A stretch of 63,926 nt of DNA, counting the filler, from Dugesia japonica (Eukaryota): assembly GCA_001938525.1 (NCBI GenBank). It is 5 parts of 5 records of this genome, joined end to end, with 100 filler letters (N's around TTAATTAATTAA, not from the genome) between each part and the next. Parts side by side here need not be neighbours in the genome. Positions count along the whole stretch, not along the records: positions 32,685 to 53,337 come from MQRL01640044.1; 4 more parts are not named here. One strand, 5' to 3'. The stretch's first letter is position 1. Each line of letters opens with the position of its first letter. Below are positions 4,729 to 58,040 of the stretch, piece by piece. The notes beneath the pieces are model-generated. The model was given only the letters and a program-made list of their open reading frames with translations. It searched no databases and was not told the origin of the DNA. The position numbers and the translations under genes are program-made.

Positions 4729-6195
<1,467 letters not shown>

Positions 6196-19400: not shown

Positions 19401-22347
19401 AAACAATAACGTACGTTTTTAATTACATTTAAACAAATTTAAAAATTGTGTTTATTTATTATTTTTTCTACTTTAAAATTTTAAATTGACATTTAGAATG
19501 TGAACCACCAAAGCTCCAATTTGGTATATGTAATACGAATACGCTCACCCGAGAAGTTTATCAGATTGTTAGTAAACTTGTTACGATGTTAGTTAAATTC
19601 AGTTATTAACAATATGGATATTTGATGTGATTTGGTTATTGCAGAAATAACAAGAAAGTTTGTCAAAACGATACAAAGAAAATAAAAGATGAAATATGTG
19701 ATTGTCCTAAGTCAACTGTCACGGAGAACTGTCTAAGCAACAGATTGATTAAACAGACAATTGAATATACATTTAATCGAGAAAATAAAATATGTGACAA
19801 AAAGATTAGTGAAACAGATAAAACAGAAGCTTGTGTACCACCTATTGAAATATCCAAAGTCAGTTTAATCATTTGTTGTTGTTTTTTAATTTAATCGTCG
19901 AAAATTTGATCATTTTTTAGGGAATTTGTGATGAAAAAAATTGCAAACAAAATATCATAAATATCACGAAACAATTAGTAAATTGTAAATGTATAAGAAC
20001 AGAAAATACTGAAACAAAATTGTGTTGTTGTCTTAAAAAAAATCGAACCGAAACCAATTGCGTTAGAGGAAAATGGGAGACAATTAATTACAATTATACT
20101 CTGAATAATGAGAAGAACCAATGTATTGAGACTGTTAATAAAAACAGTGAAGAAATCAAATGTCCAATACCAGACACAGATTCCATTAAATATGATGTAA
20201 ATTATCTTGGTATATGTAAGAAAACCGAGTATCAACTGAATAATTGTAAGTGTATCGAAGTAACTACTCCTCACAAGTGTCGTTGTTTTCTAAGTAATTT
20301 TATGTTTTAACCTTATCAAATTTTATTGCTTATTTGTATTAGAATCATTATAATTACAGACTTATTTGGAATTAAAAATGATTTTTTTGCTATTCTAAAT
20401 AATTCATACAAGAATAATTTAAATAAATCAATTATGACCCTAACAACTATTATGTTAATTGTATTCAAGTCATTCGTTACTACTACAGACTTATTAAACT
20501 AATAATCTCATAAGTTGCCAAATGAAACGAAACTACTTAGGTTCTACTTAGGTCTGATCAAAGTTCTGTTAATGTTATCCTAAGATTATCTTGTTACTAA
20601 ACGAACGACTAAAGGAATTTAAACTAAATACTACTATATTATTAAAATGGAAAAAATGAGCCACTAAATTACATAATTCCTACCTTGAAGAAATGTGGTT
20701 ACTCTAGGCAGTTGTAATTTGTAATAAATTTTTTTGTCATTAAATTAATATTTAAAATTTTTTAATTATTTTTATACTGACAAAAAAAACATTGAATAAT
20801 ATGTCAAATATAAAGTTTTACTAATAAAATATATTTATTATTATTAATAGAAATGCATTTTTTTGTTTAAAATTTACATTTTATTTTGGAAAATATTATA
20901 TATTTGATAAAAAGACCTTGAGAATTTGTTGGGTAAAAATCCATGAAGGACGCAAGCAGAGCTCGCTATACACGTCAGAATTACTCAGCAGGCGATATCC
21001 TTTCGACTAAAACAGCTATTAAGGATTCAAAAAGCTTGCAGGTGGGTGCCTTATCATCTTACTACAGAGAACAAGGAAAGGGGATAATAGCTTTTAACAA
21101 TAAAATATGGCGCTGAATCTACTAAAAATTAAATAGTACAGTAATCTCTTGCTTTGTGGAAATAATTTTTAAATATTTCACCCGAAAAAGGCGGAATGAT
21201 ATAAAAAAAATACAAACTTTCTGGATAAATTTAATAAAATACTTCTTCAAATCGTTGAATATATTCATAACATTATTAGTATACAATTTTTCTCCCTAAT
21301 TTTAGATATGAGCTTTCTGTTTCAAACCACACCTCCCTTACGCAATCATATACAGTGGTGCAGTAAGCTCACATCCAGTTTATTAAGTAATCAACTGGGA
21401 TGGATTATGTCAGACATATATGACTATGTATTCGTAATATTATTGTGCAATATTTACGTAACAGTTCCGTAATAGCTCGGAGATTACGTCGCAGCGTTAT
21501 TATTTTATGATTACGTCAGCTGTTATGTAATCACTCTGAAAAATACATTTTTTACAGCAGTTTAGTGTAAAAGACCATTTATGTTTAAAATTTTTAAAAA
21601 AATTTTTGTTTTTAAATTATGAAAATTTTTTTACCAGTCTGCTGAGAATTTCTTTGGGATCATTTTTGGTAAAAATTTGATTTTTTCGAAGCACTTTTTC
21701 ACAAATTTTTATCACCAATATTTATTTGATAGAGAATTTTAAGCTGGTCAAGAATATCATATTTAAAAGTTAACAACATTATCCTTGATTAAATGAAATA
21801 AAAACAAGTATGCACGACGTGCATACGCAGTTAAGGGAGAAATTGCGCTTATAATTTTTTTTAAAAATATTTAACTTTGGCAAAAAATTAACAGCGAATA
21901 TTTTTAATGAATTCAAAATTATAAATAATATCCAATGAAAATTGAATTTAATCAAATGAATTTAATTTTAATTGCTATTTCAAAGTTTATAATTAGAATT
22001 TACTGAACAAATTGTTAATGAAGAAAGCATAGCAGAAATATTGAAAAAATGGAATAAAAAGAAGAGCAACAGTTCTGATCTTTTGCTTCTAAAACATTCT
22101 ATTTTAAATAAAAATTTTTATTCAGTTATTTTCACAGATCAGTGGTTAAAATTTTTAAATCTTTGTAAAAAAAAAGATTTATTATTCAATATATTCTTTT
22201 AAATTTTTTAAAATTTAGAATGTCCAGAAGAAAGTGATATTAAAACTTGTGAAAATGGAGTTTCCAGAATCAATAATACCAAATACAATTTCGATTATCA
22301 ACAGTGTAAATGTGTTGTAAATATCCTAATAAATGATACAGTAATAA
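16494..22347 (+). CDS. Large cysteine-rich repeat protein, probably extracellular, partial (exons ~16494-16871, 16919-18820, 19497-19587, 19645-19858, 19921-~20281/20293, 22219-22347)
   Basis: About 1000 aa are open across phase-compatible GT-AG introns. A ~45-50 aa module recurs with NCxC/CxC motifs (NCQC, NCKC, NCSC, GCKC, QCKC), plus several N-x-S/T sequons. No start codon or signal peptide seen. Confidence 0.8.
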
Positions 22348-24227: not shown

Positions 24228-24672
24228 AAGAGTATATTCAGAGAAATGTAAATTCATGTAAAAGGAGATCAAATTTGTGGGACATGTTATCAGTAAAGAA
24301 AGTGTCATAACAGATCAAACTAAAATAGAAGCAATTAAGAACTTTTGTTAACCAAAATGCATTCAAAAAATGAGAAGCTTCTTGGGATTTCGCCATTTCT
24401 ATCTCAAGTTTATTAAAGATTATTCAAAAAAAACTAGATTTGCGGAACAACTGTGTAGTGGACTGAGTATCAAGAAGATTGAATGTGCGAATGAATTAGA
24501 AGAAGTTTTTAATGGAATGAAAGAAGCACTAATGATGTCTCCAACATTATGTTCTCCAGAAATAAATAGAGGATTTATTTTAGACACGGATGCGAGTTTT
24601 GATACGATTGGGGCCGTACTTTCCCAAAGGGACAACAATGGACAAGAAAGAGTAATTGCATATGGGTCATGA
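24228..24672 (+). pseudogene. pol: Ty3/gypsy pol fragment (RT C-terminus, connection, start of RNase H)
   Basis: KFVGHVIS, MRSFLGF.HFY.KFIKDYS and FILDTDASFDTIGAVLSQ...ERVIAYGS. Confidence 0.9.
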
Positions 24673-28128: not shown

Positions 28129-28680
28129 TCAAAGCCTTTTGTGAAAGGTTTTTTTTACCAGTGCGTAGTCCATTGTAAGCACAATTTTGTTCTGAGGTTG
28201 TATTTTATGTTCTTTTAAGATGCTCTTTAGCTTATTTCTTATTGTTTTATTATCGTTATGTTGTATTTTTTCTTTGATTTTTGTTGCTTTGTTTTCTTTC
28301 AAGTTAGAAATGACTGTTGGTTTTCCACATACCATTTGACTCGGGCTTTGGATTGTTTCGTAACCCTATTAATATTTGTGGCAATTTCTCGAGCCATGTC
28401 CTGTCGTTTGGGATTGTACGCAGGCTTTATTTTAATGTTCTGTAAACCTCTCTATTTTCCCATTACATTGCGGGTTATATGTAGTAGTTCTGTTCTTTTT
28501 AATTTCGTATTTGTTGCACAGATGTTTGAACAACTCAGATTCAAATTGTCTTCCTTGATCTGTTATTAGTGTTTTTGGTTGTCCATAGCGAGCGAACAAA
28601 TTTAATTCTATATTCTTGCAAATGTTTGCTGCGGATATTTCTTTCAGTGGGATAACGCTCAAAGTAGCATAAAACCCAGT
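28129..28680 (-). pseudogene. Ty3/gypsy integrase fragment
   Basis: ARYGQPKTLITDQGRQFESELFKHLCNKYEIKKNRTTTYNPQCNGKIERF (rve core). Confidence 0.9.
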
Positions 28681-28739
28681 TAGTGATAAATCAACACTTA
28701 AATCACACTCTAAACCGATTGAAGTCTTCAAAAGTTACA

Positions 28740-32684: not shown

Positions 32685-33363
32685 TATATTTGTCTGGTTT
32701 TCTCTTTATGCTTAGTATTCGCCTCTATTCGTCTTGCTTTTGTTGTCAACTCTTCTAAGTTTTTATACTCTGCTGCTATCAGAGCATCTCGAATATGTTT
32801 ATGTGTCCCATTTAGAAACTGAAATTCTATAATATGACCCGTATTTTCTCCTTTTCCAAAAGCTTTTTCTGCTAACCTTGTTAGCTCATATATATATTCA
32901 CCCACTGTTTCATTTGCTGATTGTACTCTATCTCTAAATTTTTTTATACAAATTCGTTCTAATTCACTTGGGACTATTATCTTTTTCCTCAATTTTGGTA
33001 TTAACCCATCCCATTTATCCGATTTGTTGTCTAAGTTTTTATAGCATTTTAATACATGTTCTTTTAAGTAAAGTGGTAACCTTTTAACTAGTTCTGCTTC
33101 TGTCCATCCACAAGCCGTGGCACAAACCTGAATATGCTCGAAATACTCATCAAATTCCTCAGGTTTTCTTGCATAGAATTGTATGGGTAATATATTTAAA
33201 TAACCTTGGTGACTAAATCCACCTCCTACTTGACCATTCAATAGTAAATTTCTGAAAGGTGTATTTTCATCGTTTTTATTTCCCGTAGTCATTTTTTTAA
33301 TCTCTCTATTTCTCAAATTATATACTATATCTTCTTCAATGATTATTCCTTCGGTATCTTTTC
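32685..33363 (-). CDS. gag: Ty3/gypsy Gag, capsid region (partial)
   Basis: FYARKPEEFDEYFEHIQVCATACGWTEAELVKRLPLYLK...RVQSANETVGEYIYELTRLAEKAF...QFLNG, typical of retrotransposon capsid/MHR. Confidence 0.85.
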
Positions 33364-35526: not shown

Positions 35527-36202
35527 TTAAAATATGCATACTTGATCATCTTCATAATTCTCCAACCATACAGATTTTAACAAAGGAACATCACCAACAA
35601 TTATAGGTTCAACAATATTACTATAGATGAACATTCGATGTAGATTAGTGATTAATTTCGGATATTTAGCACTAATGAATTTAGTATGGACTATATTTAT
35701 ATAATGGCGAGTATATGTTTTTCTGTCTAATCTCAATGATTTTGCCAAGAAATTATCGAATGTAACACTTTTAACATTTTCCAATAACGAAAATCGGAAT
35801 GGTTCATCATTTTTTATAGTAAATGTTTTGAAAACAGACTTACTCATTTTTGTGATGAAACGACTAAATTGGTCAAAATTCGATATGTAATATTCGTTTT
35901 GTAAAGATATGAATTTATTAGTTTCTATTGAAAACACTAATTTCATNNNNNNNNNNNNNNNNNNNNNNNNNNNNNNNNNNNNNNNNNNNNNNNNNNTTCG
36001 TTTTGTAAAGATATGAATTTATTAGTTTCTATTGAAAACACTAATTTCATTTTCATAACATCAATCGAATTATTCTTTTTTAAGTTTTGATATTGTATGG
36101 TAGAATCTGATTCTTTATTATTCCTTAAAGTATTAAATCCAAATCTTTTGGCATCTTATAAATTGTCAAATATTACAACATAATCATGATGTTTAAATAT
36201 AA
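35527..36202 (-). pseudogene. Maverick/Polinton minor capsid (penton) C-terminal fragment
   Basis: RMFIYSNIVEPIIVGDVPLLKSV motif. It is homologous to 54591-55103 (QLYIYSSIVDLILFGDVRVLLLRSI; DAKRFGFN versus DARLLGFN). Confidence 0.75.
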
Positions 36203-36601
36203 TTAGTCGGGGGATAGTAGCGCACGACCCCATTTTTTTAAAGCAGTTATCAAGGATTTAATACACCTTGAAAAAATTGGCAAAACAATCGAGATATACA
36301 ATGTAATACCTGTGGAAGACGGAGACATATAGCCTGCGACTGTAGGAGTAGAGGTAATAATAGCAACAACAATCGATTTTGTGCCTATTGTAAGAAGACT
36401 AACCACAACATAGAAACGTGTTTCTTGAAAAATCCAACCGTCTGCTATAAGTGTAACAGAAGAGGACATATGGCAAAAGAATGTCAAAACGGTAATAAAA
36501 CAAATTATAATCGGAATCCGAATACGAATTTGGATAATCTAATGCAAGAAAATGAGCGATTAAAGTAAAAAGTAAATCAAAACAAGGGACAAGTTAATTT
36601 A
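36203..36601 (+). pseudogene. gag: Gag nucleocapsid with three CCHC zinc knuckles (missed by the ORF track)
   Basis: From 36302: CNTCGRRRHIACDC, CAYCKKTNHNIETC, CYKCNRRGHMAKEC. Same frame as ORF 36602. Confidence 0.9.
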
Positions 36602-39309
36602 GTGCATCAAAGTACTTTCGACAATGTGTACTACAAGGTGCAACAGGAAAATGACTGGCTCAAGTGGCAAAACCAAGATTTGCAGGTACAGCAGGAGAGA
36701 CTAGCCAAAAGAAACCTATTAAATGAACCATACAAGAATCAGTGCAATATGGTTAGGACGCACAGGCAAATTTATAACCAGCATGACGAAAAAACGGAAG
36801 TTACCGAAATGGAAGATACTCGAAAAAGAATATTGATTACGTCGCAAGAATTTGACTGGACTAAAGAGATCATCTATAAAACAATAAAACCGTCAGTACC
36901 GACCACCGGAAGAAGGCCACTGATGAACCAGTTCCTCCGATCATATCAACACCCACAAGTACACGCAAAGGTAAGGGCTAACTGGCAGAAAACAATATCG
37001 GATTATATCACCGAGCTGTATAAAGAAACCCAGTTAGAAGACTATGAGTTAGAAATTCAATATGTATGGCATAACAACGTAGAGGTCATTCCAAAAGGAG
37101 TTAAGGTACCATTAAAAGGGTTGAATGTACGACATTTGAAAGAAGCTATGAACGAGATAAAATGGAGCAAAGTAAATGGTATCAAGGGATGACTGTAAAC
37201 TCGTTTCTCGAATTACCACCGTTTGACGCGCAGCAACGATGGAATGGAAAGTGGAGTGAGCACAGACTGCTATTAGGTAATATAGGAATCAATATTCTTC
37301 CAGATGATCGGAATCTAATATTTAACGGAGCACGACCCCATGAAACTACCATAATTAAATTTATAAATTGGGATTCGGTATTCCGACCACAAACAGTAAT
37401 TCAGGAAATAGAAACTGACGAACTATATCATAATCTTGAGGAAACATTCCTAAAGGAAATCGTTCCAATCCAGTCTCAAACATAAATACGGAAACGATTG
37501 GGGACGGTAAGGCTAATGGACTATCCAGAATTGGAATAAGCCAAAGCGTCACGATTATCCTTGGCACGAATTGATGAGATACTGATAGCGGCGCAGAAAT
37601 TACATGACACGATAAAGAAAGAAGTATACCTAAAGTTGACAAATCGATTGGTCGAACTATTGGAAGTGATACAACTAATTACCGAGTGCGAAAGCGATTG
37701 GACAGAATGGTTACCGGTGCATTACGAATGGGTAATATCCAACATGGGATTATCGGATTACCAAGTATGGCTATATAACCCGGAAGGAAATATGAAACTG
37801 ACGCTCATATGATTAATGGTAGAGGATCTGGAAGCTGCGCTTAAGCAAGCTGGTTATCCAAGCATAACCGATAAATATGTATGCACACCAAGTGCTATGG
37901 TAGATTTTACCGCCAGAAAGAAACATCTATAAGATTTTGGAGTAAAACCAGAAGAGGGCACTGAAATCGTAGTATTGGACAAACACCGTGGTATCGACTA
38001 TGACATCAGGATAACAAAAACCGGAAGATCAGCTTTAAAAATCATAGGAGAAATGGAATATCTATATAAACAAGGAGTAGAGCCAATTAAAATCAAGATA
38101 CTTTCCACGGTACTCGAAAAAAAAGATAAACTGACAAAGGAGGAGAGGAAACAGTTGTTAATGACGCGTAACGACTTCCTCACGCAGCGATTGGAGAGAA
38201 AAGAGAGGAAATGCAACATGATAAGAATGCGACAGATGCCATCGAGAGAGGTAGTAGCAATGCGTAAGGTGGAAGAAATGGTTAACCGAGTACAGATGAA
38301 GAAGGAGAACCTACCCCGAGAAACCTGTCGGATGATAATGAATAGAATCTATGACATATATGACGGACTAGAAATACCGGAGGAAATCGAGAACCAATGG
38401 CTCGTGATTAGGCAGAAAAAATATTGGCAAATACCAAAATTCAGGAATCTAAATTATATTTGAATAAAGGTTAAAATGAACAAGAACTGACTAAATACAG
38501 TCGATTAAAACCACAAGGAATAACCATGATAGATTTAATGGATGCCATTACCGATAAGTGGTGAGAACAAGAACTAAACATGGTACCTCTGTTCATAAAT
38601 GGCAAATTGGTCGAGACAGACGACGAGGATAAGCACATATTCCAATGCCACGTAAAGCCTGGAGAAATATGTGAGTTGGATGTAGATGAGGAGCCATAGG
38701 CGGGTCAATCACCGGATCTCGAGGAGTGAATGGAAGAGATAACAGAATTATACGTATCCGAGGTATTGTCTGGTATAAAGAAACAAGTAAAAGAAAATCA
38801 GCGAATACAGAATATTGATAACCTACCAATAACCACCACCAAATCAGTTGTATTTCCGGAAGGGACACCAACAATACGCGATATTCGGATGAAATATACA
38901 AAACCGATAACGGAAAAATCCGCTACGTTTCACGCTATCAACGATCTGTTAAAAGTAACCCGAGAAACTCGACCAGTTGTGAATATCAAAGTATATCGGA
39001 AAATGATGAATAATCTACGGGATTTGGCAATTTATGGACAGCTCAGCTTGTGGGCTCCAGCACAATGGTTGAAAGAGAAAAACCTATACAAAGAGGAAGT
39101 ACAGAATACATCCACTTTATCCGACTATTCTCTCAGAGTCAGCCTACTTAGTAAAGAGGGAAGCATAAAAAAGGTAGATATGAGAACGCTGAAAGGACTA
39201 ACGATCAACCATATCATAAAACCAATCAAGAAATGGCTATGGCCAAAATCACTCAAGTCCTATAAAATGCAAGCAGAAGCAACAAAGATTATATTAGCCG
39301 AGAAAGAGA
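36602..39309 (+). pseudogene. ~900-aa polyprotein region of unknown function between Gag NC and the glycoprotein (ORF pieces 36602, 37162, 37561, 37975, 38730)
   Basis: Near-continuous coding fragments on one strand, broken by stops and frameshifts; no motif recognised. Confidence 0.6.
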
Positions 39310-41615
39310 ACCACTACAATACTCTTATTATCCCTAATGATGGGCAGAAGTGAAGCCATATTAGCATACGACTGCGATGGAATGCAAGTTGGAAAGGAAG
39401 TATTCTCATTAATGGATACAAAAGAATGTACAGATGCAAACCCAGAGAAAATCTTACTCCGTAATAATTCCATTTATCATCTATATTAGGAGTCAGATTA
39501 TTATAAGGCCAAGTACGCGAATGTACAGTAACGGTAAAAACATTTATATTTTATTGTGGGTATTACAGTTAAACTTCGGTCATTGATCCAGGAACAGTAA
39601 GACATCCTGTAAATCTAACCGGACAACAAAGCGATGAAGGATTTTCCACAGGAAAGATCACCATCAAACATGGGACTCAGGTCATCGCCAAGAAAGGGCA
39701 TGTAATCGACCAACTCATAGAAGCAGCAGGAAGTATATCTTCACATAAAGGTCACTGCGAATACGGTACATACACTATACGAGGAAAGGTCTGGGAGTAT
39801 GCGGTAGCAATTGAAACCTATAACGTATAACTCAAGGAATACGAGGCATTCTTTGATGCCCAAGATTTGACTTTGTAAGGAAGGTTATATTGCAAAGCAG
39901 CAGATGGATCAGGTAATAAAGGTACATCAACATTAACATATAAAGTAGAGCACCAGGACTGTAAATTAGCACACTTAAAAGAAGCAATGTTCAATTAATA
40001 TCAAGGGCAACGAGCTATAACGCCTATCGATCAAGCACCAAAGGAGGGTAATCTAAACGATAGAATAGATAATCTCAAAGAAACGATAAGATCAGGGCAA
40101 AGATCATACGATCAACAATGGCACACAACTCCTAAAGTGTTAATGTCCTCAGAGCAAGATGAGACCATCCGGCTAATTAAAGGAAATGCAATGTCAAAGT
40201 GTGGGCAAATAGAGTATAAAACGAACTACAAAGGAATATTCGTTTCGGAACATCGTATAAAAACAGCTCAAGCCGCAGTGATGTCACAGGATATCAAATT
40301 GCATCTGTATGCCAATAATAAAATGGATAATTTATTTCATCGCATGTAAGATACCATCGGACATATGTACCACGATCTTATTCAAAATGACTGCACAATA
40401 AATAAAGAAATATTGAAGACAAAATTAGCAATGGCGGTTACAAACCCAGATAGTGTCACTCCTCTACTTCATTCGGTAGAGTAGTAGGAGAAGTAATTTA
40501 CCTGTACAAATGTAAGGCTATAGATGCAAAAGTTCTCTTCTAATCCAAAAAACTGATATAATGAAATAGAAATTATCCACAACAACGATAAACGGTACGT
40601 ACAACCATTTACGCGAATCATATCACCAATGGGTTATAGGCCAAATATCATAAATTGCTCTAACGTATTTTGGCCACAATACATAATGACAGATGGTTCA
40701 TGGATACGATTTCCGTAACGAATGGCAGTGAGAGTCGAACCACAAAAATTCTCCATGTTACGGTTGAATAGGGGTATGCAATTCACTCCAATTGACGTAA
40801 ATAAAGGAGGAATTTACAGCCGGGAAGATCTGGAGAAAGCCAGGGAATACATGCTGTTCCCAGTCCGAAGGATGCAAATTCTATCAAATATAGTACAATT
40901 AACCAGTGGAACTAACAAAGATGAACGAGTGAATTGCGATGCATTATTGTCAGCAGATCACTTTCAAAAAGTCACAGAAAACGTAATGCAAAAAATGTGG
41001 GGACGATTCATCATATTTGGACAAGCAATGGCAGGATTGTTGGGAGTTATGCTGATAATTTCGGTAACACGAGTAGTGATTACTCAATTGTTCGCATTTT
41101 TTTATATATACAAAAGAGAGAAAAAGGTGAATTGGAAAATGGTAATGGGATTATTTCCATTTTTAGCCAAGACTATGGTGCTTAATAGTCACTCCAAGGA
41201 TATTGACAGGGTAAAGAGATTCATTCCAAAACTCGGACAAATACGAGGATCAGNCAAGGAAGTTATAATGCAACTCAGACTATTATGCGAAGAAATGAGC
41301 AACGCTAAGAAGAAAATATCTTATTTCAACCAATTCAAAGAAAGATTTAAAAATAAAGGCGAAAGTAGTAGCAACAGTGACGACGTTAGAGGGGAAAGCA
41401 GTGGAACCCCTCATGTACCCAATTATAAAACTGCCATGGAATATGTCACAGAATTCAAAAGGCAGCAATACGAAAAGATCAGCAAAATGCAACGACTAAA
41501 AAACGCGTTAAAATTCGGAGGAGGAGAAAGCACACCAGCACCAGCGCAAATGTATTATTACGCCTATCCGCAACATGGTTGGCAACCCATGAACCAACCA
41601 CTCCAACAAGTATGA
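39310..41615 (+). pseudogene. env: Chuvirus (Jingchuvirales)-type envelope fusion glycoprotein, decayed
   Basis: Signal-like TILLLSLMMGRSEA|ILAYDC...FSLMDTKEC; REC.V.VKTFIFYCGYYS*TSV; GEVIYLYKC; QPFTRII..NCS..PQY...GSW; GGIYSREDLEKAREYMLFP; TM region WGRFIIFGQAMAGLLGVMLII. This motif series matches chuviral glycoproteins as I know them. Confidence 0.85.
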
Positions 41616-41809
41616 GCACCAGGTCCCATGTACAACAATCCGTATGTAAGCCCACTACAAGCCCAGAATATGGCGCTATTAACGGATAACAATGTATCAA
41701 CTATGGACCGAAGAATAATCGAACAAAACTTACGTACTCCAAATAACCAGATTAAGGAGGAGGATAAGTTAGAGACTCAAACCGTATGTATGATGATTTC
41801 TCAAAAAGC

Positions 41810-42100
41810 AAAATTATTACAGAAAAGGATACAAATCGACGGAAGATTGGTAATAGCTATTATTGATACAGGAACAAGTACGACGTTAGTCCATAAGAGG
41901 ATATTAGAAGATTATTGCCTACTTAGAATAACAATCAAAAAGGAGTTATCATCACGGCCTTTGGAAAAGAAAAATCTCACCCATTGGAGAAGCAATATGT
42001 GCGTTAGAAAGCGATGGAATCCGTTTCTGGCATAAACTGCAAATAATGAACGAATTAACGTTCGACTGTTTATTGGGGTTGGACCTCTTGCCACGCCTCT
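41810..42100 (+). pseudogene. Retropepsin aspartic protease domain 1
   Basis: IQIDGRLVIAIIDTGTSTTLV (DTG at 41865-41873), then after a frameshift ...FDCLLGLDLL. Confidence 0.85.
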
Positions 42101-42439
42101 GTCCCGAGGGAATATTGGATTTGAGAAAACTAACGATACGAGAAAACTACGATTAAGAGTATGCACTGGTAGGATATCAGAAAACTAGTATAATAACCCA
42201 ACAGAAACGACCACAACAATTGAATCAGCCAACACCCAACCGACTGAGACAGCGGCCAACTGGCCGAAATAAACAAAACAATTCGAATCAAGACCGTCAG
42301 AAAATCACCAATACAACTACCTTGATAAGGGGCGATTGGATAAGGTTTCAAGAACGAGAACCAAGATGGAAAAACAAAATACCAACAAACTGCAATCATA
42401 ACCCTTCAGATGTAGTATGCGCAAGTCTCAATGGCGGAC

Positions 42440-42723
42440 CAGTATTAACCATTATAGTTAAAATCAACGGCCGACCCATAACAGCCCTATTGGATACCCG
42501 AGCAACCATATCGTTGTTGTCAATAGATGAAATTGCGATAACCGAATACAAAAACACACTACCCACAAACACTATAGCAGATGTGGCAAATGGTAGTAGC
42601 CTCAAAATTTTTGGAGAATTGGCCTGTGAAGTCAAATATCAGGTTAAAAAAATTAAACACAATATGATCATAGTAGAAATGATGGGCCAGTGTATTCTAG
42701 GGACAGATATTCTTCGAGTCTAG
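42440..42723 (+). pseudogene. Retropepsin aspartic protease domain 2
   Basis: VKINGRPITALLDTRATISLL (DTR, one base from DTG), ADVANGSSLKIFG and CILGTDIL. Confidence 0.85.
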
Positions 42724-45700
42724 ATGAAAAATGGCATATTAAACTTCTCAACATTACGGTTACAATCATTGAAAGGTTATACCCGTGTGAAGGATCACGA
42801 AGAAGAAATTTTGGTACCCAGTAGATGCCAAGTATATTGTGTGGTCAGTACCAAAAGTGCCTATGAAGGAGATTGTTATTTCGAACCGTATGACGGATTT
42901 ACACACCAGTACGAGATACCCACGGCAGGAGGAATAAACATGGTCAACAAAAGTGGGGAAGTACCAGTTAACTTAGTTAATTTTACAGAAAAAGATATCA
43001 CAATTAAGCCAAACTCCAGGATGGGTACACTAACCCCCATCGAACCTGAACCCGAAGTGATAGAAGAAATAGCCCCTGAACCGGAAATTGATAGAACATT
43101 TAAAGTGGAAACGGAAACTTTATCAGAAGACCAGAAACAAGCAATACTACAATTGTTGGAAGAATTTCGAGATATTTTCGAATGGACCGATGAAGAGTTG
43201 GGTATGTGCACAGCAAAAATGCACGCAATTCCGTTAACAGACGAAACTCCATGCAAACAGAAGCCATATGCCATGACAGTGGAGAAAAAAGAGTTTGCAA
43301 ATAAAGAAACAGCTAAATTAGTGAAAATCGGTGTGATAGAACCATGGCAGTCGCCAGTAGTGTTAGTAGATAAAAAGGATGGGACGCAACGATTCTGCAT
43401 TTATTACAGACGGTTGAACGCTTAAACTAAGAAAGACACGTACCCATTGCCAGATATCAAGGAATTACTGCAATTACTTTGTAACGCTAAAATATTCACT
43501 ACGTTAGATTTGCGAAGCGGTTATTGGCAAATTTAGATCAAACCAGAAGATAGGGAAAAAACAGCCTTTTCCACAGGCAAGGACTTATACCAATTTATCC
43601 GTAGGCCATTTGGACTTACTTATGCACCAGCCTCTTTCCAACGAATGATGAATTACGTAACTCACGGCATATCTCAATGTATGGCCTATATCGATGATCT
43701 ACTTATCTATTCGCCAACCTTTGAAGGGCACCTTAATGACTTGTGTATTATGTTTGTACGACTACGTAAATGGAATTTAAAAGTGAAACCCACCAAATGC
43801 GAATAGGCCAAGAATAAAGTAACCTATTTAGGCGAACTAGTATCGGAAATTCATTAAGGATTTCGCTAAAATTGCGAAGTCAATGCAGGATTTGGTTAAA
43901 CAAGATACTGCCTTTAAATGGGGACCGGAACAACAAAAGTCGTTTGAAACATTACGAGATAAATTACTAACTGCACCAATTCTGGTACACCCAGATTTTA
44001 AGAAGCCATTTATATTAGCCACCGACGCTAGTGGATACGCGATGGGTGCAGTGTTAAGTTAATTAGACGAACAAGAAAGATAAAGAGTAATCGCATATTT
44101 TAGCAAGAAATTCCAAGGAGCAGAGTTAAGCTACAGTACTACAGAACAAGAAATAATGGCTATTGTAAAAGCCACCAAAGATTTTTGATCACTTATACAT
44201 GGTCATGAGGTATTAATCTATACAGATCATTTACCAATCACTTTCATGGCTCAGAAACCATTACGATGGAACCGGATGGCAAAATGGCAGTTAGCAATGC
44301 AGGATTATTGTCCATTATTAAAATTTAAAGCGGGAAAAGCAAACTCAAATGCCGACTGCCTGTCCAGAATTGGTGGACCAGAAACTACAGGAAATACACC
44401 AGAAGATTTCGAAACGTTTACAGGAATTATTAGAGAAAAAAGTAGGCATGGTTTACTTTATACTAGCTGAAGATAGGAATTTTGATGGATTTAAACAAGC
44501 GCAAGCTGACGATGAGGAAATCCAGGTAATCACAAAATATATGGAAAATTACAATTTAGAGAAGTTAGAATGTGAACCCAAGATGAAGGAACACCTAAAA
44601 AAGAATGAGGGTCGTTATGCAATTACCAAGGGTTGGTTGACAGCTCAGAATGGAGATAATACCGTGTTGGTTATCCCTAAGGCAAGACGGGATAAGCTAC
44701 TTGAACAGTATCATAATGGTGTATTAGGAGGACATTTGTCCCATAAGAAAACTGAGTCAAAATTAAGACAGAAATATTACTGGCCACATATGACAGAATC
44801 AGTGCTGCCAGAAGAGGAACAGGAAAAGGAGTAAAAGCGTTATTAAAGCCCATCGCTGTACCAACCGCTCCAATGGAAATCTTTGCTATGGATGTAGTTG
44901 GACTATTACCTCCAACCCTAAGCGGAAATATTTACATAGTTACCATAATGGACTACTTATTTAAATTCCCAGAAGCATTTCTAATGAAAAATCAAAAGGC
45001 AAAAACTATAGCCGATATTTTGGTACGAACATTTTTCAGCAGATACGGTGCACCAAAGAAAATACTGACGGATCAGGGAAAGAGCTTTATGAGTAACATC
45101 TTAGCAGAAATATCGAACTTCCTTAAAATCCACCAACTACGAACCTCACCTTATCATCCTCAAACAGATGGGTTAACAGAACGATTTAATAAAACTTTGA
45201 TCAATATGTTGTCCAGTCACGCTCAAAAGGAACAAAATAACTGGGATAAACCTATTCAACTATGCCTATTTGCATATCGAATGAGTGTGCACCCCGCAAC
45301 TAAATACACCTCATTTGGTCTTATGTATGGGAGAGAATGTAACATGCCTATTGACTTGGAATTCCAGCCACCGATAACCTAATATCAAGATGAAATGGAC
45401 TTTGCCGCAAATTTCAAAGAGACCATACAGAAAATATGGAAACAAGCCAAAGAGAATGTAGGATTTTACCAAGAAAGTTATAAAGATTTACACGATAAAA
45501 CAGCAGTGCAACATTCTTTTAAAAAAGGCGACATGGTATTAATCAATTTACCAGACATTTGTGTCGGTAGGACATCGAAATTAAAAAGACCATGGCAAGG
45601 ACCGTATGAGGTAATCGAAGTAACAGAAACTACCCTCAAGGTTCGAAAGAAGGGGAATCTACTAGAGAATCCAAAGATCTACCACGCCAACTTGTGTAAA

Positions 45701-45775
45701 AAGGCAGCAGTGACAGAAGAAGCTGCGCCAGTCACAAGCACTGAGCCCACCGCAACAAGCTATGATGGTACTTAG
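42724..45775 (+). pseudogene. pol: Pol: possible dUTPase-like linker, reverse transcriptase, RNase H, integrase (zinc finger, DDE core, GPY/F)
   Basis: SPVVLVDKKDG.QRFC, LDLRSGYWQ, PFGL..APASFQR, YIDD (43687), TDASGYAMGAVL, YTDH, H..GGH...YYWP, MDVVG, TDQGKSF, PYHPQTDGLTERFN and WQGPYEV. Several stops, frameshifts and small deletions. Confidence 0.95.
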
Positions 45776-47080
45776 TAAACCACTAATAAATCCTTCACCA
45801 TGGAGGAGTAAAGAAACAGTGGTAAAGAAAAACAGTCTCAGGGAGGACGCTGAGTTTGAAGAAAACGGGGAAGGATTAATAACGGGAAAAAAGAAAAAAG
45901 AAAAACAAGAAACGGGTCTACCTGCTGCGAATATAGAAAGACCAGAAACATAGTTACGAAGGATAACTAAGGTATTATAGATGGATGTTTCTGAACACGA
46001 CATCAACCAAGAAAAAGCTAAGGAGGGTAGTACAATCATAAATACCTCACCGAGTATTTCGGGGATAAAACAAACATGTAAAAGAGGTAGAATTAAACAT
46101 ACACTGAGCAATATTCAATCTCAGCAAACGCAGCAAAGTGCATCATTGATTAATAATAAAGAAATTGTTAAGAAACAAAGAGATAAAACATTGTCTTTCG
46201 ATTCAGGTAACCAAATGCGCCGACCACTCATGATAGAGGCTATGAGTGCCACCACAATCTATCCAATCACATATCAAGGAATGCAAACACCTAGAGCAGA
46301 GGAGAATTGTGCCCATATCGGAAAAATAACATGCCCACTGACAGTAATGCAGTTAGAAAGAAACTGTTCACAATGTATAAAGAAAACGCAAATTATACTA
46401 AAAACCACGTGGAAGGCTATTTACGATCAGAAAGCATGGTTATCAAGATGAGAAAATTGGTTCAAAAAAGAGTCTGAAGGATCACAAATTGAGCTACCAA
46501 TTGAAGCACCTATCCGGCAATCCACCCTAAAAAAAAGTTGGGTTTATCTTGTGCCGAAGTATATAGTGAAGAATTGTTAACATCTGTTCAACTATTTCAC
46601 CATATACTAGTGCAATGGAATTGGATTAGATTATACGAACCATTGGAGATCCAATTGCCAGGGAGCATGATTACACCAGCTATCCAAAATAAATTAACTT
46701 GGAAGAAATCGAAACCAATCAATATCGCAAATTTTCATGAAGAGTTTAAAAAGCAAAGGAATTTGACGAAAGAAGCATTTCAGAATCAAGGGGACGAAAG
46801 GAAGGAAAAAGAAAGACAACTAACCAGAATAACGTCGGGAGGAAGAATAAATTAGAAGCGACATTAATACCAAAAGAGGTGGATCAAAGAAAACCAAGAA
46901 AACAAGAATGGGATTACAATAATAGTAGTTAAATTATCTCTACTATTATGGGCAATAATCAACACAAGTTGGGATTACGGCATATTAGTGTGGTTAACTA
47001 CGAAACTTATCAGAAATACGGAGAAGGACAAACCCATATAAATTATAATATACGGAATCACATGGATAATTCTACTCTGA
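45762..47080 (+). pseudogene. Post-integrase coding region of unknown function
   Basis: Consecutive ORF pieces 45762, 45981, 46538 and 46948; charged and low-complexity, with one C/H-containing segment (CAHIGKITC...CSQC). Confidence 0.45.
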
Positions 47081-48648
47081 TTGATATCACCAGCACTGGC
47101 AACACAACAAGCACAAAAGTTCAGCCAAAATAAAATTCTTAGTATCAAAAGTATATTGATTATCTTAATAACGGCTATACAGGAAATACAAAGTCAGGAA
47201 TGCTGGGTGAATGAACCAGTATTGACAGAACATAGGATAGCCACGGGAAAAGACGTATCCATTAGTCGCTCGGGATTATTAAAAAAGTGGAAAACACAAC
47301 CAATGCATTATACCGGGAAAATGGCGCTAGTACCATTAATAAAAAGTCAAAAGAGCACAATGGTAAAAATAGATGAAACAAAAAGGAGAATAAAAGTACA
47401 CCTCTTAAGCCAATCGCCAATAGAAGGCCGAGTGATATAATTTGGTCTGGATAAATGGGTAATAAATTCCGTGGTGGATATAAAATGTGAAAATCCAGAC
47501 AATCCATTATTGTATGAAATNNNNNNNNNNNNNNNNNNNNNNNNNNNNNNNNNNNNNNNNNNNNNNNNNNAAATTCCGTGGTGGATATAAAATGTGAAAA
47601 TCCAGACAATCCATTATTGTATGAAATGAAAGCAGAATTTGAAATAGTGGGGAGTTGCAACATCCTGATATACTATATAGAAGACAACCTTTGAACTAAG
47701 AAGTGGGAAACGCGGAAAACCCAGAACCAAGAAATAAAAATATGCGCAAGAAGCGAGTTTAACTATCATACCATTATTTGACAGTTCCAGCGCTATCGAG
47801 TAAAAAAATTTGGAGAGGAGATAAAAAAGGAAGGGCAAACAAGTATAACCTTTAATCAAGGTAAAAGAGTGCATTCAATCATTGCATCATGAATTTAAAG
47901 ATTGGAAACCATATTGGCAAATGGGCCCATACTCATTCCAAGTAAAAAAGATCAAGAACAAATATTACCTAAAATTCGATAGAAAGATTGAGCAATTAAT
48001 ATTGCACCAATTCAACGATTTTTCTAACTGGTGGTGGAAAATGGATACCGGGTATTGGCCTGTGAAAGCAAACGCAGAAATACATTTTGGAGAATTAAAT
48101 AAAGATATACTGGGAATCGAATTTACGACTGTAATAAACCAAGATCGAGTAATTAAAAAGAACATAACAAAAGAACCAGAGTTAACTACCAAGAAAATCA
48201 CCACAACTTATCCATCAACGGTATCGATAACCACAGAAAAGGAAAAACTCAACACAGAGTGTAACCAAGGGAAAGGAGAAAAAAGATCTCAATTCCTTAA
48301 CAATTGGATGATGAATATACGCAAATTTGAATCTAGAGGAAACTATTGGGAAGTAATGGAAGGACTCTCGACTACATATCGTCCAATTACCAAGTTACAC
48401 AAGTAAGAAGTCAGGAAATGGGGTATGTTGTGGGAAAAGGAAGCGCCGTCATTACAATACTCTTAATCAGCATCGCATGCATATGCAAATCGCAACCTAA
48501 GAAAAAGAAATACCATCGTCATAAAAAAGAACGCCCTCTACCTTTAGCACCACCAAGTTATGAAGGGCTGATACAGAGAATGCCATTTGAAACATTACCA
48601 CCTTACATGCCTTGGGTGTACCTGGTACAAGGGGTAATGACGTGCTAA
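47081..48648 (+). pseudogene. Second type-I membrane (env-like) protein at the canonical env position
   Basis: Signal-like ILSIKSILIILITAIQEIQS|QEC, a Cys/Trp-containing ectodomain, a Thr-rich stalk (TTKKITTTYPSTVSITT), TM VVGKGSAVITILLISIACIC, basic KSQPKKKKYHRHKK, and a tail with PPSY (48550-48561) and LPPY. Confidence 0.65.
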
Positions 48649-48748
48649 GCAAATGTTGAATTTGTGTAAATATTGTAAATTAGAACATAATAAATATATA
48701 TAGATGTAATTAACATTATCATATTAACAAAAACCAATTATTCAGAAA

Positions 48749-49351
48749 ATGAATCAGATCGGAAATGAAAGTGATTATACAAGTATAAACGAAAATGAAT
48801 CAATGGACTCACAAAGTGGACTAAAGAATGCTAGTATGACAAGTTATATACGTAGTAATTCGGTCAGGAGCACTACTTCAATAAATAATAATAACGCCAT
48901 CTGTTCCCAAAGAACAATCAATGAAATATGGAGAGACCATAACGAAGCAATAAAAGAATTATGGAATAGTGCAAACACCCAAATGCAATGGACTCAACAA
49001 CGATTAGAAGAACTAGAATGCAATCAAATTCAACTAGTACAAACCCTAATAACAACGAAACCCTTAGATTGGTGCGAATTGGACTTTAAGAATAAAATCT
49101 TACAACTACAGAATGAAAATCTCTACTCAGAAACCCTTATGTGTCGGAAACAACTAATAGAAAATCGACGAATGCTGGAAATCGTCACAGAAAAGCAAAA
49201 CTACCCAATGGAGTTGGTAGCTAAGCAACACGACCTAATCCTCGATCAGTCAAAAGAACTTAAATACCTAAACAAATTAGTAAATTCACAAAGTAGGGAA
49301 ATCGAGACACTCAAGACCCTGAGTGTCCGCAACCAAGTCAGTTTTGTCTGA
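48749..49351 (+). CDS. Accessory coiled-coil protein (200 aa, intact ORF)
   Basis: S/N-rich N-terminus then heptad-rich helices; TTCAG|AAAATG context. Confidence 0.6.
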   Translation: MNQIGNESDYTSINENESMDSQSGLKNASMTSYIRSNSVRSTTSINNNNAICSQRTINEIWRDHNEAIKELWNSANTQMQWTQQRLEELECNQIQLVQTLITTKPLDWCELDFKNKILQLQNENLYSETLMCRKQLIENRRMLEIVTEKQNYPMELVAKQHDLILDQSKELKYLNKLVNSQSREIETLKTLSVRNQVSFV

Positions 49352-49598
49352 AATCTAAGAGAGAGGGGGAGTTTTTAAAAAAAATATATATATAAAATAA
49401 ATAATAAAATAAATAAAAATAAAGAAGTGATTAATAAAAAAATAAATAAGTAAATACTTATATTTATGTATATATATGCCTGTATTCGACACAAGTAAAC
49501 CTGTACTCGAAGTAATATAACATGATGTATAAGAGGAAATCAAAAAACAATATAATAGTATTATATAATCAGAAGTAATAATATATCTCTTGTAGATA

Positions 49599-50643
49599 AT
49601 GGAATTCAATTTCGAAATATCAATACATGAGGTTAGACTATTTTTGGAAGACCCAGATATCAAATCGTTGGACATGAGCAAAGGACGAGAGGAAATCAAG
49701 CAAACCCCAGTAACACAAAACATAATGCACTACCGTAACGTATTTGCAGCACCGGAAAATTTCATAAGTAAAAGGGTGTGTTACAGCACAATGACAGTTT
49801 TTGATGAGAAGTACACAAATGGGGCATGAATGAGCAACCCAATAGAGCACATAGAAAATGGTTTCCTACCTGTCCATTCCTGCTAAATGTAGATGTAAAC
49901 AACAAATCCCAACTAATTAAAGGAAGAAAGCCCGAAATCGAAGAATCAACAATGGAGACAAAAAAGTTATATTGTAAAATAATAAAAAATTTAGCGGAAG
50001 TAGCAGTCCCAGAGGATCTCGAATTGAATATCGAAGAAAGAGAAAAACCTTCCAGAAAATACCAAATCTGGAAGAAAAAACAATGGAAGGATTATATCTC
50101 GTCCAGCAAACCAGAGATAAAGTTATCAAATGCGCCACTTGCAAACGAGAAACTCTACTACTTCAAGGAATAGAGAAATTACCAAAGAAAATATTCCATC
50201 AACCGAATTGTTTAAGATTAACACCAATCAACAACGAAGAAACACAACCAACAGCATGTAGAATCGAATGAAATATGTCGAGTAAAAGAATAGAAATGGC
50301 AATGGAATTACAGACTAACCAGCTGGCTAATACCTTAAAGTTATATAGGATGAATATCAAACAGTTAATAAAACAAACGGTCGCAGAAAAAGGGTCTGGA
50401 CTAGTCACACCATATGAGTTATACCAAAGATCACTCAAATCGGTAAAACCACAGGTGAAATATGAGCAAGAATGGGTTTTGCTAGATCATGATTGCGTTA
50501 TCTGCCTTGGAGAGACCATTGAGGTCATATTTTTGTCATGTGGGCATTTCAAAACATGCTATAAGTGTGCTTTACACTTAAATGAATGCCCTATGTGCCG
50601 AAAGGTAATTAAACACAGGGTATGGGAAATAAAATTTCAATAA
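49599..50643 (+). pseudogene. iap: Inhibitor of apoptosis (BIR - BIR-like - RING) carried by the retroelement
   Basis: BIR1 end HKWGMNEQPNRAHRKWFPTCPFL has W-x9-H-x6-C spacing. BIR2-like GLYLVQQTRDKVIKCATCK...FHQPNC. C-terminal IAP-type RING CVICLGETIEVIFLSCGHFKTCYKCALHLNECPMCRKVI. Two frameshifts and one in-frame stop. Confidence 0.87.
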
Positions 50644-50741
50644 ATCAATAAACTGAATATGTAAATAATATATAATTATATATACTTATAACTGTCAAAA
50701 TGGTATTAAAATAAATTAATCACTCTCCCTGATTTTAGAAA

Positions 50742-51116
50742 ATGAACACTGAAAACTTGATAAACCATTTGCGTAACGAGATTCAAATATTGCAAATTCA
50801 AACCCAAACTCTTACCACTGTACCTGAAGTCCTAAAATGGAAATTGGAATCCAAAATCGATGCAATATCAAATTTGCAATTGCAAAAATATAATAGTGAG
50901 TTGGAAAGTCAAGTCGAAAGAGCGCACCTAGAGCTAGAAAATAAAAAACGATCCTGCAAGTCCCACAAAAAATAAATTAAAAGTAACATTGATGCAAACC
51001 GAGCAAAAGTAAACGCGATAAAACAGGCTCGCGAATGGAAAAGCAAATACGAAAACGTGGAACCCAAACGTAAAGAATCCGAAAGCAGTCAACATACCGA
51101 AGGAGAAGTAGACTGA
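50742..51116 (+). pseudogene. Accessory coiled-coil ORF (one internal stop at 50973-75, open again to 51116)
   Basis: TTTTAG|AAAATG context; heptad repeats. Confidence 0.5.
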
Positions 51117-51375
51117 TAATCATTAAAGTCGATGTAAATAAACTGTTATTAATACCTAGACTATAAATTACTTATTAATAATAATCGGATAAAGGAACTT
51201 TGAAAATATTGATGTATACAGTAATTAAATGTATAGTGTAGAAAGGTTTTATGTATGTGCTGAACAAATAACCTGTAATGACCTTAAACTCATATTGATC
51301 TGTCAGTTTTATTGGGAATAAAGGAGTTTCTGCAACGAGGATGGACTATGGCAAATTCCGGGACGGAATTTAAAC

Positions 51376-51391
51376 AAGACGGAGAGCGATT
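51376..51391 (+). promoter_or_regulatory. Polypurine-tract-like sequence before the 3' LTR
   Basis: CGGGACGGAATTTAAAC-AAGACGGAGAGCGATT, immediately followed by TGTTGGG. Confidence 0.65.
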
Positions 51392-53337
51392 TGTTGGGAT
51401 GAAACACCCGCTAAACGAGAATAAAGCCGAAAAGGCAGATCAACGAAAAGAATAGCAGAACCACTATAGTTCGTAATAATGAAATAAAACATATAATCAT
51501 CATTAGAGGGGAACAAATTAAAATCCAAGATAAATATGAAGAACCGGGTAACATAGAAGCAACTTATGTTTGGAAATTAAGAAAAATTATTAAATTAATA
51601 ATAAATAGCAAAGAAAAGTGGTTTTAAAATAATTAATTAACAAAAGAAAATTAATTAATTTGAAAATAAAAAAGAAGCGCAATTAGTCAAAAATCTGTTT
51701 TATCCAGATAACTTCGTTCAAGGAAGTCAGAAAGAAACCGGACAAGAAAAAATGAGAAGAACATCAAGATACAATTGAAATAACGAAGAAGAAAAACATA
51801 CCACCTTGCAGAAGGGTACTGCAAGGTTTCCAAGATCCAGCCAATAGAAAACCAATAAATAAAAATATAACAAAGACACAAATGTCAGGTGTCATGATAA
51901 AAATAGCTGCCAATTGCAGCACCAAAATTCTTAGAAAAATTTAGAAAATTGGCTCGGTAACCAATAATATCCAATAAAGGCTGATCCAAAAATAATTAGC
52001 AAATCTAAATCAAGTCGGGGTGTCTCAGAAATCATATAAAAAGACCCCTGAGTTTAACAGAAAAAAAACACAAAAAAACCAAAACTAAAACCACTAATTT
52101 TGTAGATTCATTGCTGTGAAATTATATCAATTACCGGTTAACCCAAGGTATTAACGGAATAATATTAGTTATCGCGTATCAGTCGTGATATATCAGAAAA
52201 TTAACGTAGTTTAAATTTTGCGGTGTGAATCGTGAATAAATTTATTATTTAGAAAACAGGGAATTACAAGAACTCTCAATTCAAGAATCGCATCCAGTAA
52301 TTATTCGAATATTATATATAAACCCGTTTCAGGAATCTTATTAGTTTATCCCAAAGGAGATTAATTCGAAGTAATTAATATTTTGATTGTATTAAATGTG
52401 TGTGCATATACAATTTATTATAATCTACTCTAATAAATTTGATTGTTTTAATCTGCTATTATAGAAAAAAAAATTCATTATAGTTTATCTAATAAATTTA
52501 GCTTTGATAAATTAGAATTTTGCTTTTGCTATAATTTCTTTTATGAAATTTAGTCATATTAAAATTCTTTACAATGCAGGAATATTAGTACATAAAATTA
52601 AGAAATAGGAACGATAGAGGATGAAAACCTCATTACAATGGTGATTCTTGAATTTAATATCGTTTCCCTGTATAAACTAAATTTAATTAATATTTTTCGG
52701 ATGAATATCAGAGAATGTTTTAAATAAACGGGAAATGGATTACAGTGAGTTACTACATTCTTATCTCTTACGCTACGGTTAAATAAACGAATATGTTTTT
52801 TTTATTTTATCAGATAATCAAACTACATGACTGATCCTTTAACGCAAACATTAAAATTTATCCGGTTTGAACGGCGTAAATCTCGGAGAAGACAGTTGTT
52901 GACTCACATCTTATCGTGTGGTGTAGTCGAGCACCCCGACGAAACAGATCTCCAGTATTTCGCCGAGATGTTTCCGTCCAAGAATCGAGTTGATATAGAC
53001 GAGGAATAACCCATTGCTCCACTCTAGGATGAAACACCAACGTGCCTCAGGTGGAGCGTCTGTGGCACGATGGACCTTCCTTAATCGGTGTTACCACAAA
53101 TCGATTGCCTTCCACTTCGCAATTATCCTCCTTTGTTCAAAACAATCTTTGGAGTGCACGAAATGAGGCTGCTAATAGCAACAATGAAAAAACCGAGGAA
53201 GAAATTACAGAAGTTTCCGTGTAATGTTATTAGGCAGAATAAACGTTGTTAACCAACTCTTCATTTTTTTGTATCAATTAACCCACTTATCTTCTTTTAC
53301 TAAATTATTTATAAGTTAAGATTCAGACTTTGTTCAT
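51392..53337 (+). repeat. Putative long 3' LTR (start TGTTGGG; end not seen before the linker)
   Basis: TG start after the PPT. TGTTGGG is the inverted complement of the CCCAACA LTR end at 33750. CCAAT-rich stretch at 51910-51975 and TATA-like CATATAAAAAG at ~52033. Confidence 0.55.
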
Positions 53338-57464: not shown

Positions 57465-58040
57465 TAATTTTCTCGGTGAGATCGAATGTGGTCAATTTTT
57501 GACTAGTTTAGATCAAATTGATCTAATTTTTCCTAGGGATTGGGAATTTTTTAGATGATTGGGTTCAATTTTTTCCCCGGTTTTGGTCAGTTTGTGTACT
57601 TTTTGGGCGATTCGATCAATTTTTGGGTGGTTTAGGTGAAATTGGTCCAATATTTCCTCGGGATGGGTAATTTTTGGGTGATTAAGGTGGAATTGGTTGA
57701 ATGTTTTCTTGGTGAGGTCGAATGAGGTCAATTATTTGGCTGGTTCAGATAAATTTAGTTCAATATTTCCTCGGGATTGGTAATTTTTGGGAAATTAAGG
57801 TGAAATTGGTCAGATTTTTCCTCGGGATTGGTAATTTTTTGGGTGATTTAGGTGAAATTGGTTGATATGTGTTTCTCGGTGAGCTAGAATATGGTCAATA
57901 TTTGAATGGTTTAGAGTAAATTTTAGGTGATTTGGTCAAATAATTCCTCGGGATTGCTCGGATTCGGTAAAGTTTGGGTGACTTGGTCTAATATTTCCTC
58001 AAGATTGGTCAGTTGGGTTAATCTTTGGACAATCTTTGAC
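57465..58040. repeat. Left arm of a long inverted repeat, made of internal tandem units (GGTGAAATTGGTC...TTTCCTCGGGATTGGTAATTTTTG)
   Basis: Near-identical reverse complement of 62610-63135; it produces identical 72-aa pseudo-ORFs on opposite strands. Degenerate units continue to ~58520. Confidence 0.9.

Follow-up and report, generated by a model that had tools for sequence, protein, structure and literature searches.

The window analyzed here, a 63,926-nucleotide stretch of DNA, is AT-rich animal DNA with scaffold gaps, in which the region from about 36200 to 52000 has an A-rich plus strand and a higher GC content. Three-frame translation and Pfam searches resolve this region into a single decayed Ty3/gypsy LTR-retroelement body that spans at least 15 kb, and a codon score, trained on open stretches of the element itself, detects a coding-like signal in one frame at a time over most of 36200–51100. 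The env region of this copy (39301–41615) is a decayed class III fusion glycoprotein that lies between Gag zinc knuckles and a protease, reverse transcriptase (RT), RNase H, and integrase. The features that we recognize are as follows:

32690–33361, minus strand: Gag capsid-like fragment between N gaps (Retrotrans_gag, E 1.7e-4; tblastn with P0099, E 4e-15, and P0112, E 4e-18)
36302–36484, plus strand: three zinc knuckles of CCHC type (Gag nucleocapsid), with a truncation of the element just upstream (Pfam zf-CCHC, E 3.9e-5)
36485–39300, plus strand: decayed spacer of ~900 codons from the Gag knuckles to env (coding-like codon score, one frame at a time)
39301–39363, plus strand: internal signal-peptide-like segment before AYDC (KD11 1.9; position hydrophobic in 14 of 14 relatives)
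39364–41009, plus strand: class III (Monjiviricetes/gB-type) ectodomain, interrupted by stops and frame changes (Pfam, HMMER, structural model)
~41010–41102, plus strand: predicted env transmembrane anchor (KD19 up to 2.24; long helix in the model; kept in relatives)
41103–41615, plus strand: predicted cytoplasmic tail and linker, ending in the TGA at 41613–41615 (open-frame and translation scan)
41800–42035, plus strand: first aspartyl-protease-like segment, DTG at 41865, in the env-tail frame (gag-asp_proteas E 0.048, below the cut-off; tblastn with the P0252 protease unit, E 2e-4)
42454–42717, plus strand: second aspartyl protease with a degenerate active-site motif, the better Pfam match of the two (RVP, E 7.6e-6)
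42865–43026, plus strand: possible remnant of a dUTPase-like domain, 3' of the second protease and 5' of RT (dUTPase family of Pfam, E 0.089, below the cut-off)
43369–44308, plus strand: RT and RNase H (RVT_1, E 7.5e-31; RT_RNaseH_2, E 1.5e-34)
44673–45775, plus strand: integrase with H2C2, core, and C-terminal part (Integrase_H2C2, E 1e-12; rve, E 3.3e-12)
46910–48648, plus strand: predicted second membrane protein, decayed and with an N gap inside (hydrophobic segments at 46910–47185, Thr-rich stalk, transmembrane segment near 48448, PPxY-like tail)
48728–49351, plus strand: accessory ORF, coiled-coil-like by eye (ORF and translation scan)
49780–50643, plus strand: IAP-like accessory gene with a BIR remnant and a RING finger (BIR E 0.006, below the cut-off; zf-C3HC4_3, E 2.4e-13)

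The copy thus runs from three CCHC knuckles through the spacer to env, two protease-like segments, the dUTPase-like signal, RT, RNase H, integrase, and the accessory ORFs. The initial annotation had placed env 5' of pol within a gypsy element, and Pfam indeed identifies a gypsy-type protease-RT-RNase H-integrase series 3' of env, whereas the Pao-type Pfam families that we take to be markers of that other group have no match in the copy. The spacer at 36485–39300 has no informative Pfam family at E ≤ 0.1, and comparison of the Gag–Env spacer with relatives gave no match beyond the zinc knuckles. A PDB sequence search returned only two dUTPase rows, which at E ~1 we take as chance. The capsid part is absent in place upstream of the three knuckles; a matching Gag fragment is found across gaps, on the minus strand (32690–33361), corresponds in type to the N-terminal parts of relatives that bear env, and is possibly the copy's own 5' part, inverted in the scaffold.

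Several other features of the window are recorded for completeness. A DDX5/p68-like helicase exon occupies 4990–6156 (plus strand); flatworms provide the best named matches to this gene, and in its tree the gene groups with 11 named flatworm rows, apart from 7 named non-flatworm rows (88/92), while lying outside those parasitic clades that are named, so that the host is likely a flatworm. Cysteine-rich, repetitive, host-like ORFs, including a 665 aa exon, lie at 16493–20310 (plus strand) and match no Pfam family. Other gypsy elements are represented by small pieces of RT/RNase H and integrase at 24229–24672 (plus strand) and 28414–28734 (minus strand), and inverted repeats of ~490 nt at 57466–57959 and 62650–63139 (95% identity, internal subrepeats, 4.7 kb apart) are likely the ends of a DNA transposon.

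The identity of env is carried by profile searches. With stops read as X, the repaired protein matches PF24664 (Monjiviricetes_fusion) over 39522–41246 with an E-value of 6e-61 (206.7 bits against a cut-off of 27) and over 39301–39522 with an E-value of 1.8e-5, which places the earlier identification of a chuvirus-type fusion glycoprotein far beyond chance. The motifs on which that identification was based are all located by translation: the signal-like segment is followed by AYDC at 39364 and then SLMDTKEC, YCG lies near 39552, GIYS..DL...MLFP begins at 40809, and the transmembrane segment follows. The tail was also said to share its frame with the protease ORF across a lone stop codon; accordingly, the open frame 40719–41615 closes with a single TGA at 41613–41615 and the same frame resumes as ORF 41616–42035, which contains the protease DTG. 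The copy itself is unable to make an env protein and is inactive. Apart from the TGA at 41613, eight stops interrupt the homology-supported frames (39487, 39570, 39828, 39876, 39996, 40347, 40554, and 40716), with a frame change near 39510 and a brief out-of-frame stretch at ~40480–40540. The signal-like segment has no ATG in frame upstream of its hydrophobic core, and the spacer ORF 38730–39353 is in a different frame from the segment, such that the gag-side join is closed in this copy.

How env is encoded in the family can be read from relatives with open frames. A HMMER search with env recovered 602 library proteins at E ≤ 0.001, the best of which are mostly 750–3,200 residues long; a domain scan was applied to 21 of the 150 env matches listed, and the following counts are given on the 14 long, top-ranked ones. 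Env runs into a protease in 11 of these 14 and continues into RT and RNase H in five, Gag or CCHC domains lie upstream of env in four, and Gag-side and protease domains both flank env in three. The 4,844-aa ORF of P0252 comprises env, proteases, ankyrin, RT, RNase H, and integrase, and in P0096 a Bcl-2 domain lies just before env (E 1e-3). In 14 of 14 relatives, the 30 residues before A/GYDC contain the most hydrophobic 11-mer of the entire upstream sequence, and this segment sits 118–1,334 residues into the ORF. A single-ORF layout with an internal signal-like segment is hence supported, at the family level, as a trait read from these protein sequences. The initial proposal that env lies inside the polyprotein holds for the family, where intact relatives join it to Gag and Pol in one ORF; for the joins of the copy itself, with its stops and frame changes, the evidence is indirect. 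A word-indexed protein search found one relative only, and IMG/VR held no locus for P0003. One of the relatives, P0095 (HBK71150.1), is a 2,627-aa env-pol polyprotein that NCBI labels as belonging to a Flavobacteriaceae MAG; the bacterial label is most likely due to eukaryotic contamination.

Read sets show that the element is a multi-copy family with many diverged copies. Across 36200–47500, 18,496 and 28,124 contigs of two runs align, mostly at 90–95% identity and with 30 of 30 bins covered; the runs were selected with env, so that cover of env follows from the choice of runs and depth is not a copy number. At four of the env stop codons, among the sites listed, 94–100% of the depth of run X2 differs from the copy. 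Two polyA runs, with about a quarter of each run covered, yielded 51 and 3 partly fitting reads, with none at ≥95% identity and hence nothing firm on expression.

Taken with the evidence on fold and origin given below, we consider that 39301–41615 is very probably what remains of an envelope region, encoding a class III fusogen, in a decayed copy of a giant Ty3/gypsy element that exists in many copies. The element is likely from a flatworm and likely Burro-like, and in its intact relatives a single ORF encodes Gag, Env, and Pol. The alternative that best survives is that the copy represents a subfamily in which expression of Env depends on splicing, or else on a programmed frameshift, at its Gag-side join and that of Pol on reading through the TGA, which would set the Gag:Env:Pol ratio. 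With a single ORF, Gag and Pol would be made in equal quantity, a situation that most retroelements avoid. Additionally, the TGA at 41613 is not among the 40 variant rows listed (there are 644 further rows) and is thus not shown to be private to this copy, and the gag-side join at ~39220–39300 requires a frame change for which no indel at a 20% share appears in other copies among the rows listed. Read cover just upstream of the signal segment is thin and variable, however, and an indel there could be missed; stops and frame changes are numerous elsewhere in the copy, RT and integrase included; and the relatives that pass from env into protease without a stop, together with the four that pass from the Gag side into env, count against this alternative. 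We regard this arrangement as improbable.

To characterize the env protein, we modeled it with AlphaFold2 on a 106-row alignment whose rows include chuvirus-like proteins; the model is a monomer without the first ~50 ectodomain residues (pLDDT 85, pTM 0.61). Among viral models, Foldseek placed chuvirus glycoproteins at the top (E 5e-25), with matches also to those of qin-, xinmo-, and rhabdo-like viruses; among solved structures, every PDB row listed is a herpesvirus gB (best E 5.6e-6). A second structure aligner gave Z ~6 to gB and also listed Bourbon virus GP and vesiculovirus G. Global superposition on gB is poor (TM 0.14–0.18, rmsd ~22 Å), as expected because the model is a hinged monomer. 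Env of the natural relative P0096 adjoins the PF24664, rhabdovirus G, and gB clusters in the Atlas (0.96–0.92). Since all structural matches fall in one class, env is assigned on the predicted structure as a class III, gB/G-like fusogen, in agreement with the fold that had been anticipated; its trimer and fusion activity are predictions.

The origin of env was addressed with a quick tree of 116 of 151 rows, from which 35 short hits were left out; it is midpoint-rooted without an outgroup, most of its rows are unnamed, and its label for polyproteins is a length rule by which P0136, P0222, and P0098 are mislabeled. Env groups with other polyprotein envs in a clade of 15 rows (SH-aLRT 94, or 99 with three sister rows added), and the opposite, 98-row side holds the two clusters that bear chuvirus names (Hubei chuvirus-like virus 1; Wufeng shrew chuvirus 6) together with beetle, wasp, and bee proteins; within the limits of an unrooted tree of largely unnamed rows, env is not nested among chuvirus glycoproteins. 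The three sister rows, P0157, P0186, and P0193, are unnamed stand-alone glycoproteins from Logan contigs and are candidates for the nearest viral or retroelement lineage. Across seven elements, identity in env rises with identity in RT (rho 0.75, Mantel 27/5,040), although kinship alone can yield such a correlation. Because env tracks RT and belongs to the polyprotein clade, an old association between env and the gypsy backbone fits these comparisons and a fresh capture does not. An ancient capture from a Monjiviricetes-like virus may still underlie it, in a direction that would be readable only from a rooted tree.

The alternative that a gypsy lineage captured a chuvirus glycoprotein recently and independently, in parallel with Anakin of mosquitoes, would accommodate the chuvirus glycoproteins that lead the viral structural matches, the named chuvirus proteins among the sequence matches, and the stand-alone sister rows. 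Yet env is ~17–29% identical to stand-alone and chuvirus glycoproteins over part of its length, against 24–37% over most of it to the long polyprotein envs, and the separation of its clade from the named chuviruses and its tracking of RT both point away from a recent event, leaving this origin very unlikely. That a non-retroviral endogenous viral fragment was inserted by chance in one gypsy copy is highly implausible and is refuted by the domain scan and tblastn: chuvirus-like glycoprotein fragments do often adjoin gypsy fragments in arthropods, with capture unproven, in the available text of PMC10084718, but the strand, GC, and A-skew of env match the rest of the element, diverged copies abound in the read sets, and env occupies the same position, in one ORF, in many diverged relatives.

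The association of env with the element is thus probably old, and the env-in-polyprotein layout is not new, having been in print since 2019. Nematode endogenous retroviruses known as NERV, an account of which is attributed to Sacco in 2022, are reportedly metaviruses in which gag-env-pro-pol forms one continuous ORF and the glycoprotein is RNA-virus-like; they differ from the present element in their nematode hosts. In planarians, the env of Burro elements is in frame with gag on one side and with pol on the other (Arkhipova and Yushenova 2019; PMC6431247, here and below as far as its available text goes), and decayed Burro copies with stops and frameshifts are mentioned there for Dugesia japonica. 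Burro/GYPSM1, giant gypsy-like elements of dugesiid planarians, resemble the copy in the place of Env between Gag and protease (in an open frame in the relatives and a broken one in the copy), in three CCHC knuckles (Burro has Retrotrans_gag with two or three knuckles behind it), and in a very long coding span, and their env matches mononegavirus fusion glycoproteins. The dUTPase-like domain between protease and RT and the BIR of Burro have possible counterparts in the right places in the copy, both below the cut-off (E 0.089 and 0.006), and the IAP-like gene at 49780–50643 is in line with the anti-apoptosis cargo of Burro (PMC6431247). In contrast, BCL2, SUMO-like, MATH, and ankyrin domains were not detected in the copy (Pfam at E ≤ 0.1, with a decayed spacer, where PMC6431247 used HHpred); neither LTRs nor the 5' end of the copy fall within the window (Burro itself exceeds 30 kb and has LTRs); and PMC6431247 links the Burro env with gypsy Env and with paramyxovirus F, a different assignment from the class III fold of the copy. 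The copy behaves as a Burro-type element, and strict membership of Burro is likely.

A second body of work, by Chary and Hayashi (PMC13524379, cited from its accessible portions), describes many animals in which gypsy pol is accompanied by gB-type env proteins similar to Chuviridae glycoproteins, reports that the order is GAG-ENV-POL in "errantiviruses" from Platyhelminthes, Nematoda, and Bryozoa, and makes the case that env was acquired in ancient times. These HSV/gB-type GAG-ENV-POL elements share with the copy a Ty3/gypsy pol preceded by a gB-type env; their gag, env, pol order is found in the copy, as is their gypsy-type series of protease, RT, RNase H, and integrase by Pfam. The env of six Schmidtea mediterranea elements in that study is plainly of the same family as that of the copy; indeed, residues 69–141 of P0001 (the read-through env) agree with the env of Smed_errantivirus_5 at 33 of 73 positions, compared by eye and ungapped (PMC13524379, supplement 2). 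The "errantiviruses" described there are intact, with complete ORFs and LTRs, whereas the copy is dead, its ORFs broken and no LTR pair found within the window by self-BLAST. The words "polyprotein," "Burro," and "accessory" do not occur in the main text of PMC13524379 as available, and the Burro literature is not linked there. Anakin comprises Pao elements with a chuvirus glycoprotein in mosquitoes and shares with the copy the glycoprotein superfamily and an LTR-element host (PMC7642597, as far as available); it differs in its BEL/Pao backbone and insect host, and the env of the copy lies outside the insect and chuvirus rows. In arthropods, the available text of PMC10084718 reports that no clear gypsy capture of chuvirus glycoproteins was found. 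The suggestion of an independent, novel capture by a gypsy element is consequently not supported, given the layout published in PMC6431247 and PMC13524379, the polyprotein-env clade, and the tracking of RT by env. Our search of the literature found no published demonstration of infectious particles from such elements in planarians.

Two further attributes of the element, a second membrane protein after the integrase and tandem proteases, are possibly undescribed; neither is mentioned in the available text of PMC6431247. Aspartyl-protease-like domains occur twice in the copy and in up to seven Pfam stretches in P0252, some of them after the integrase, and tandem protease-like domains are also present in P0092, P0094, P0097, P0098, and P0101. 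Hydrophobic signal-plus-transmembrane pairs, predictive of a type I membrane protein, follow the integrase in the same ORF in P0092, P0095, P0106, and P0252, the copy shows this arrangement at 46910–48648, and an FN3-like motif is visible by eye in the post-integrase segment of three relatives. The predicted second membrane protein of the copy has no Pfam family, the Atlas was blank for one open piece of it (best score 0.76), and its comparison with the post-integrase segments of relatives was not significant (best E 0.04 pairwise and 0.012 with a three-sequence profile in a tiny database). Read cover falls 30- to 100-fold over 46756–47500, and the post-integrase proteins are barely or not alignable with one another. 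We offer tentatively, as a rather unlikely extension drawn from sequence features, that these elements may be enveloped flatworm retroviruses with a two-part envelope, in which a class III fusogen before Pol and a fast-changing type I attachment protein after the integrase would both be threaded through the ER from one polyprotein and cut by signal peptidase and the tandem proteases.

For the single Gag-Env-Pol precursor itself, we hypothesize a membrane-threaded route. Gag would be made by the ribosome in the cytosol; the internal signal segment would open ER translocation, with a putative signal peptidase cut just before AYDC; and the ectodomain would fold in the lumen as a gB/G-like trimer. 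The transmembrane helix would then stop transfer and return the tail and Pol to the cytosol, where the aspartyl protease or proteases of the element may release Pol from the tail of Env and trim Gag. Budding of cores may take place through membrane that carries Env, followed by entry into further cells, for example those of the germline or stem cells. The single ER-threading route is proposed because of the anatomy of the polyprotein and the manner in which flavivirus and alphavirus polyproteins are processed. The initial annotation had likewise reasoned that an env in mid-polyprotein would need threading guided by a signal and a transmembrane segment, and the internal hydrophobic segment kept in 14 of 14 relatives speaks for this, the processing itself being presumptive.

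The added value of this locus is small: the Burro env of PMC6431247 is tied to the gB-type flatworm elements of PMC13524379, a class III fold is shown, and attention is drawn to the tandem proteases, the second membrane protein, and the IAP-like gene, which go unmentioned in the prior accounts as far as their available text extends. While the copy is a poor, broken example, an env drawn, in the style of a flavivirus, from the middle of a Gag-Env-Pol polyprotein would be unusual biology.
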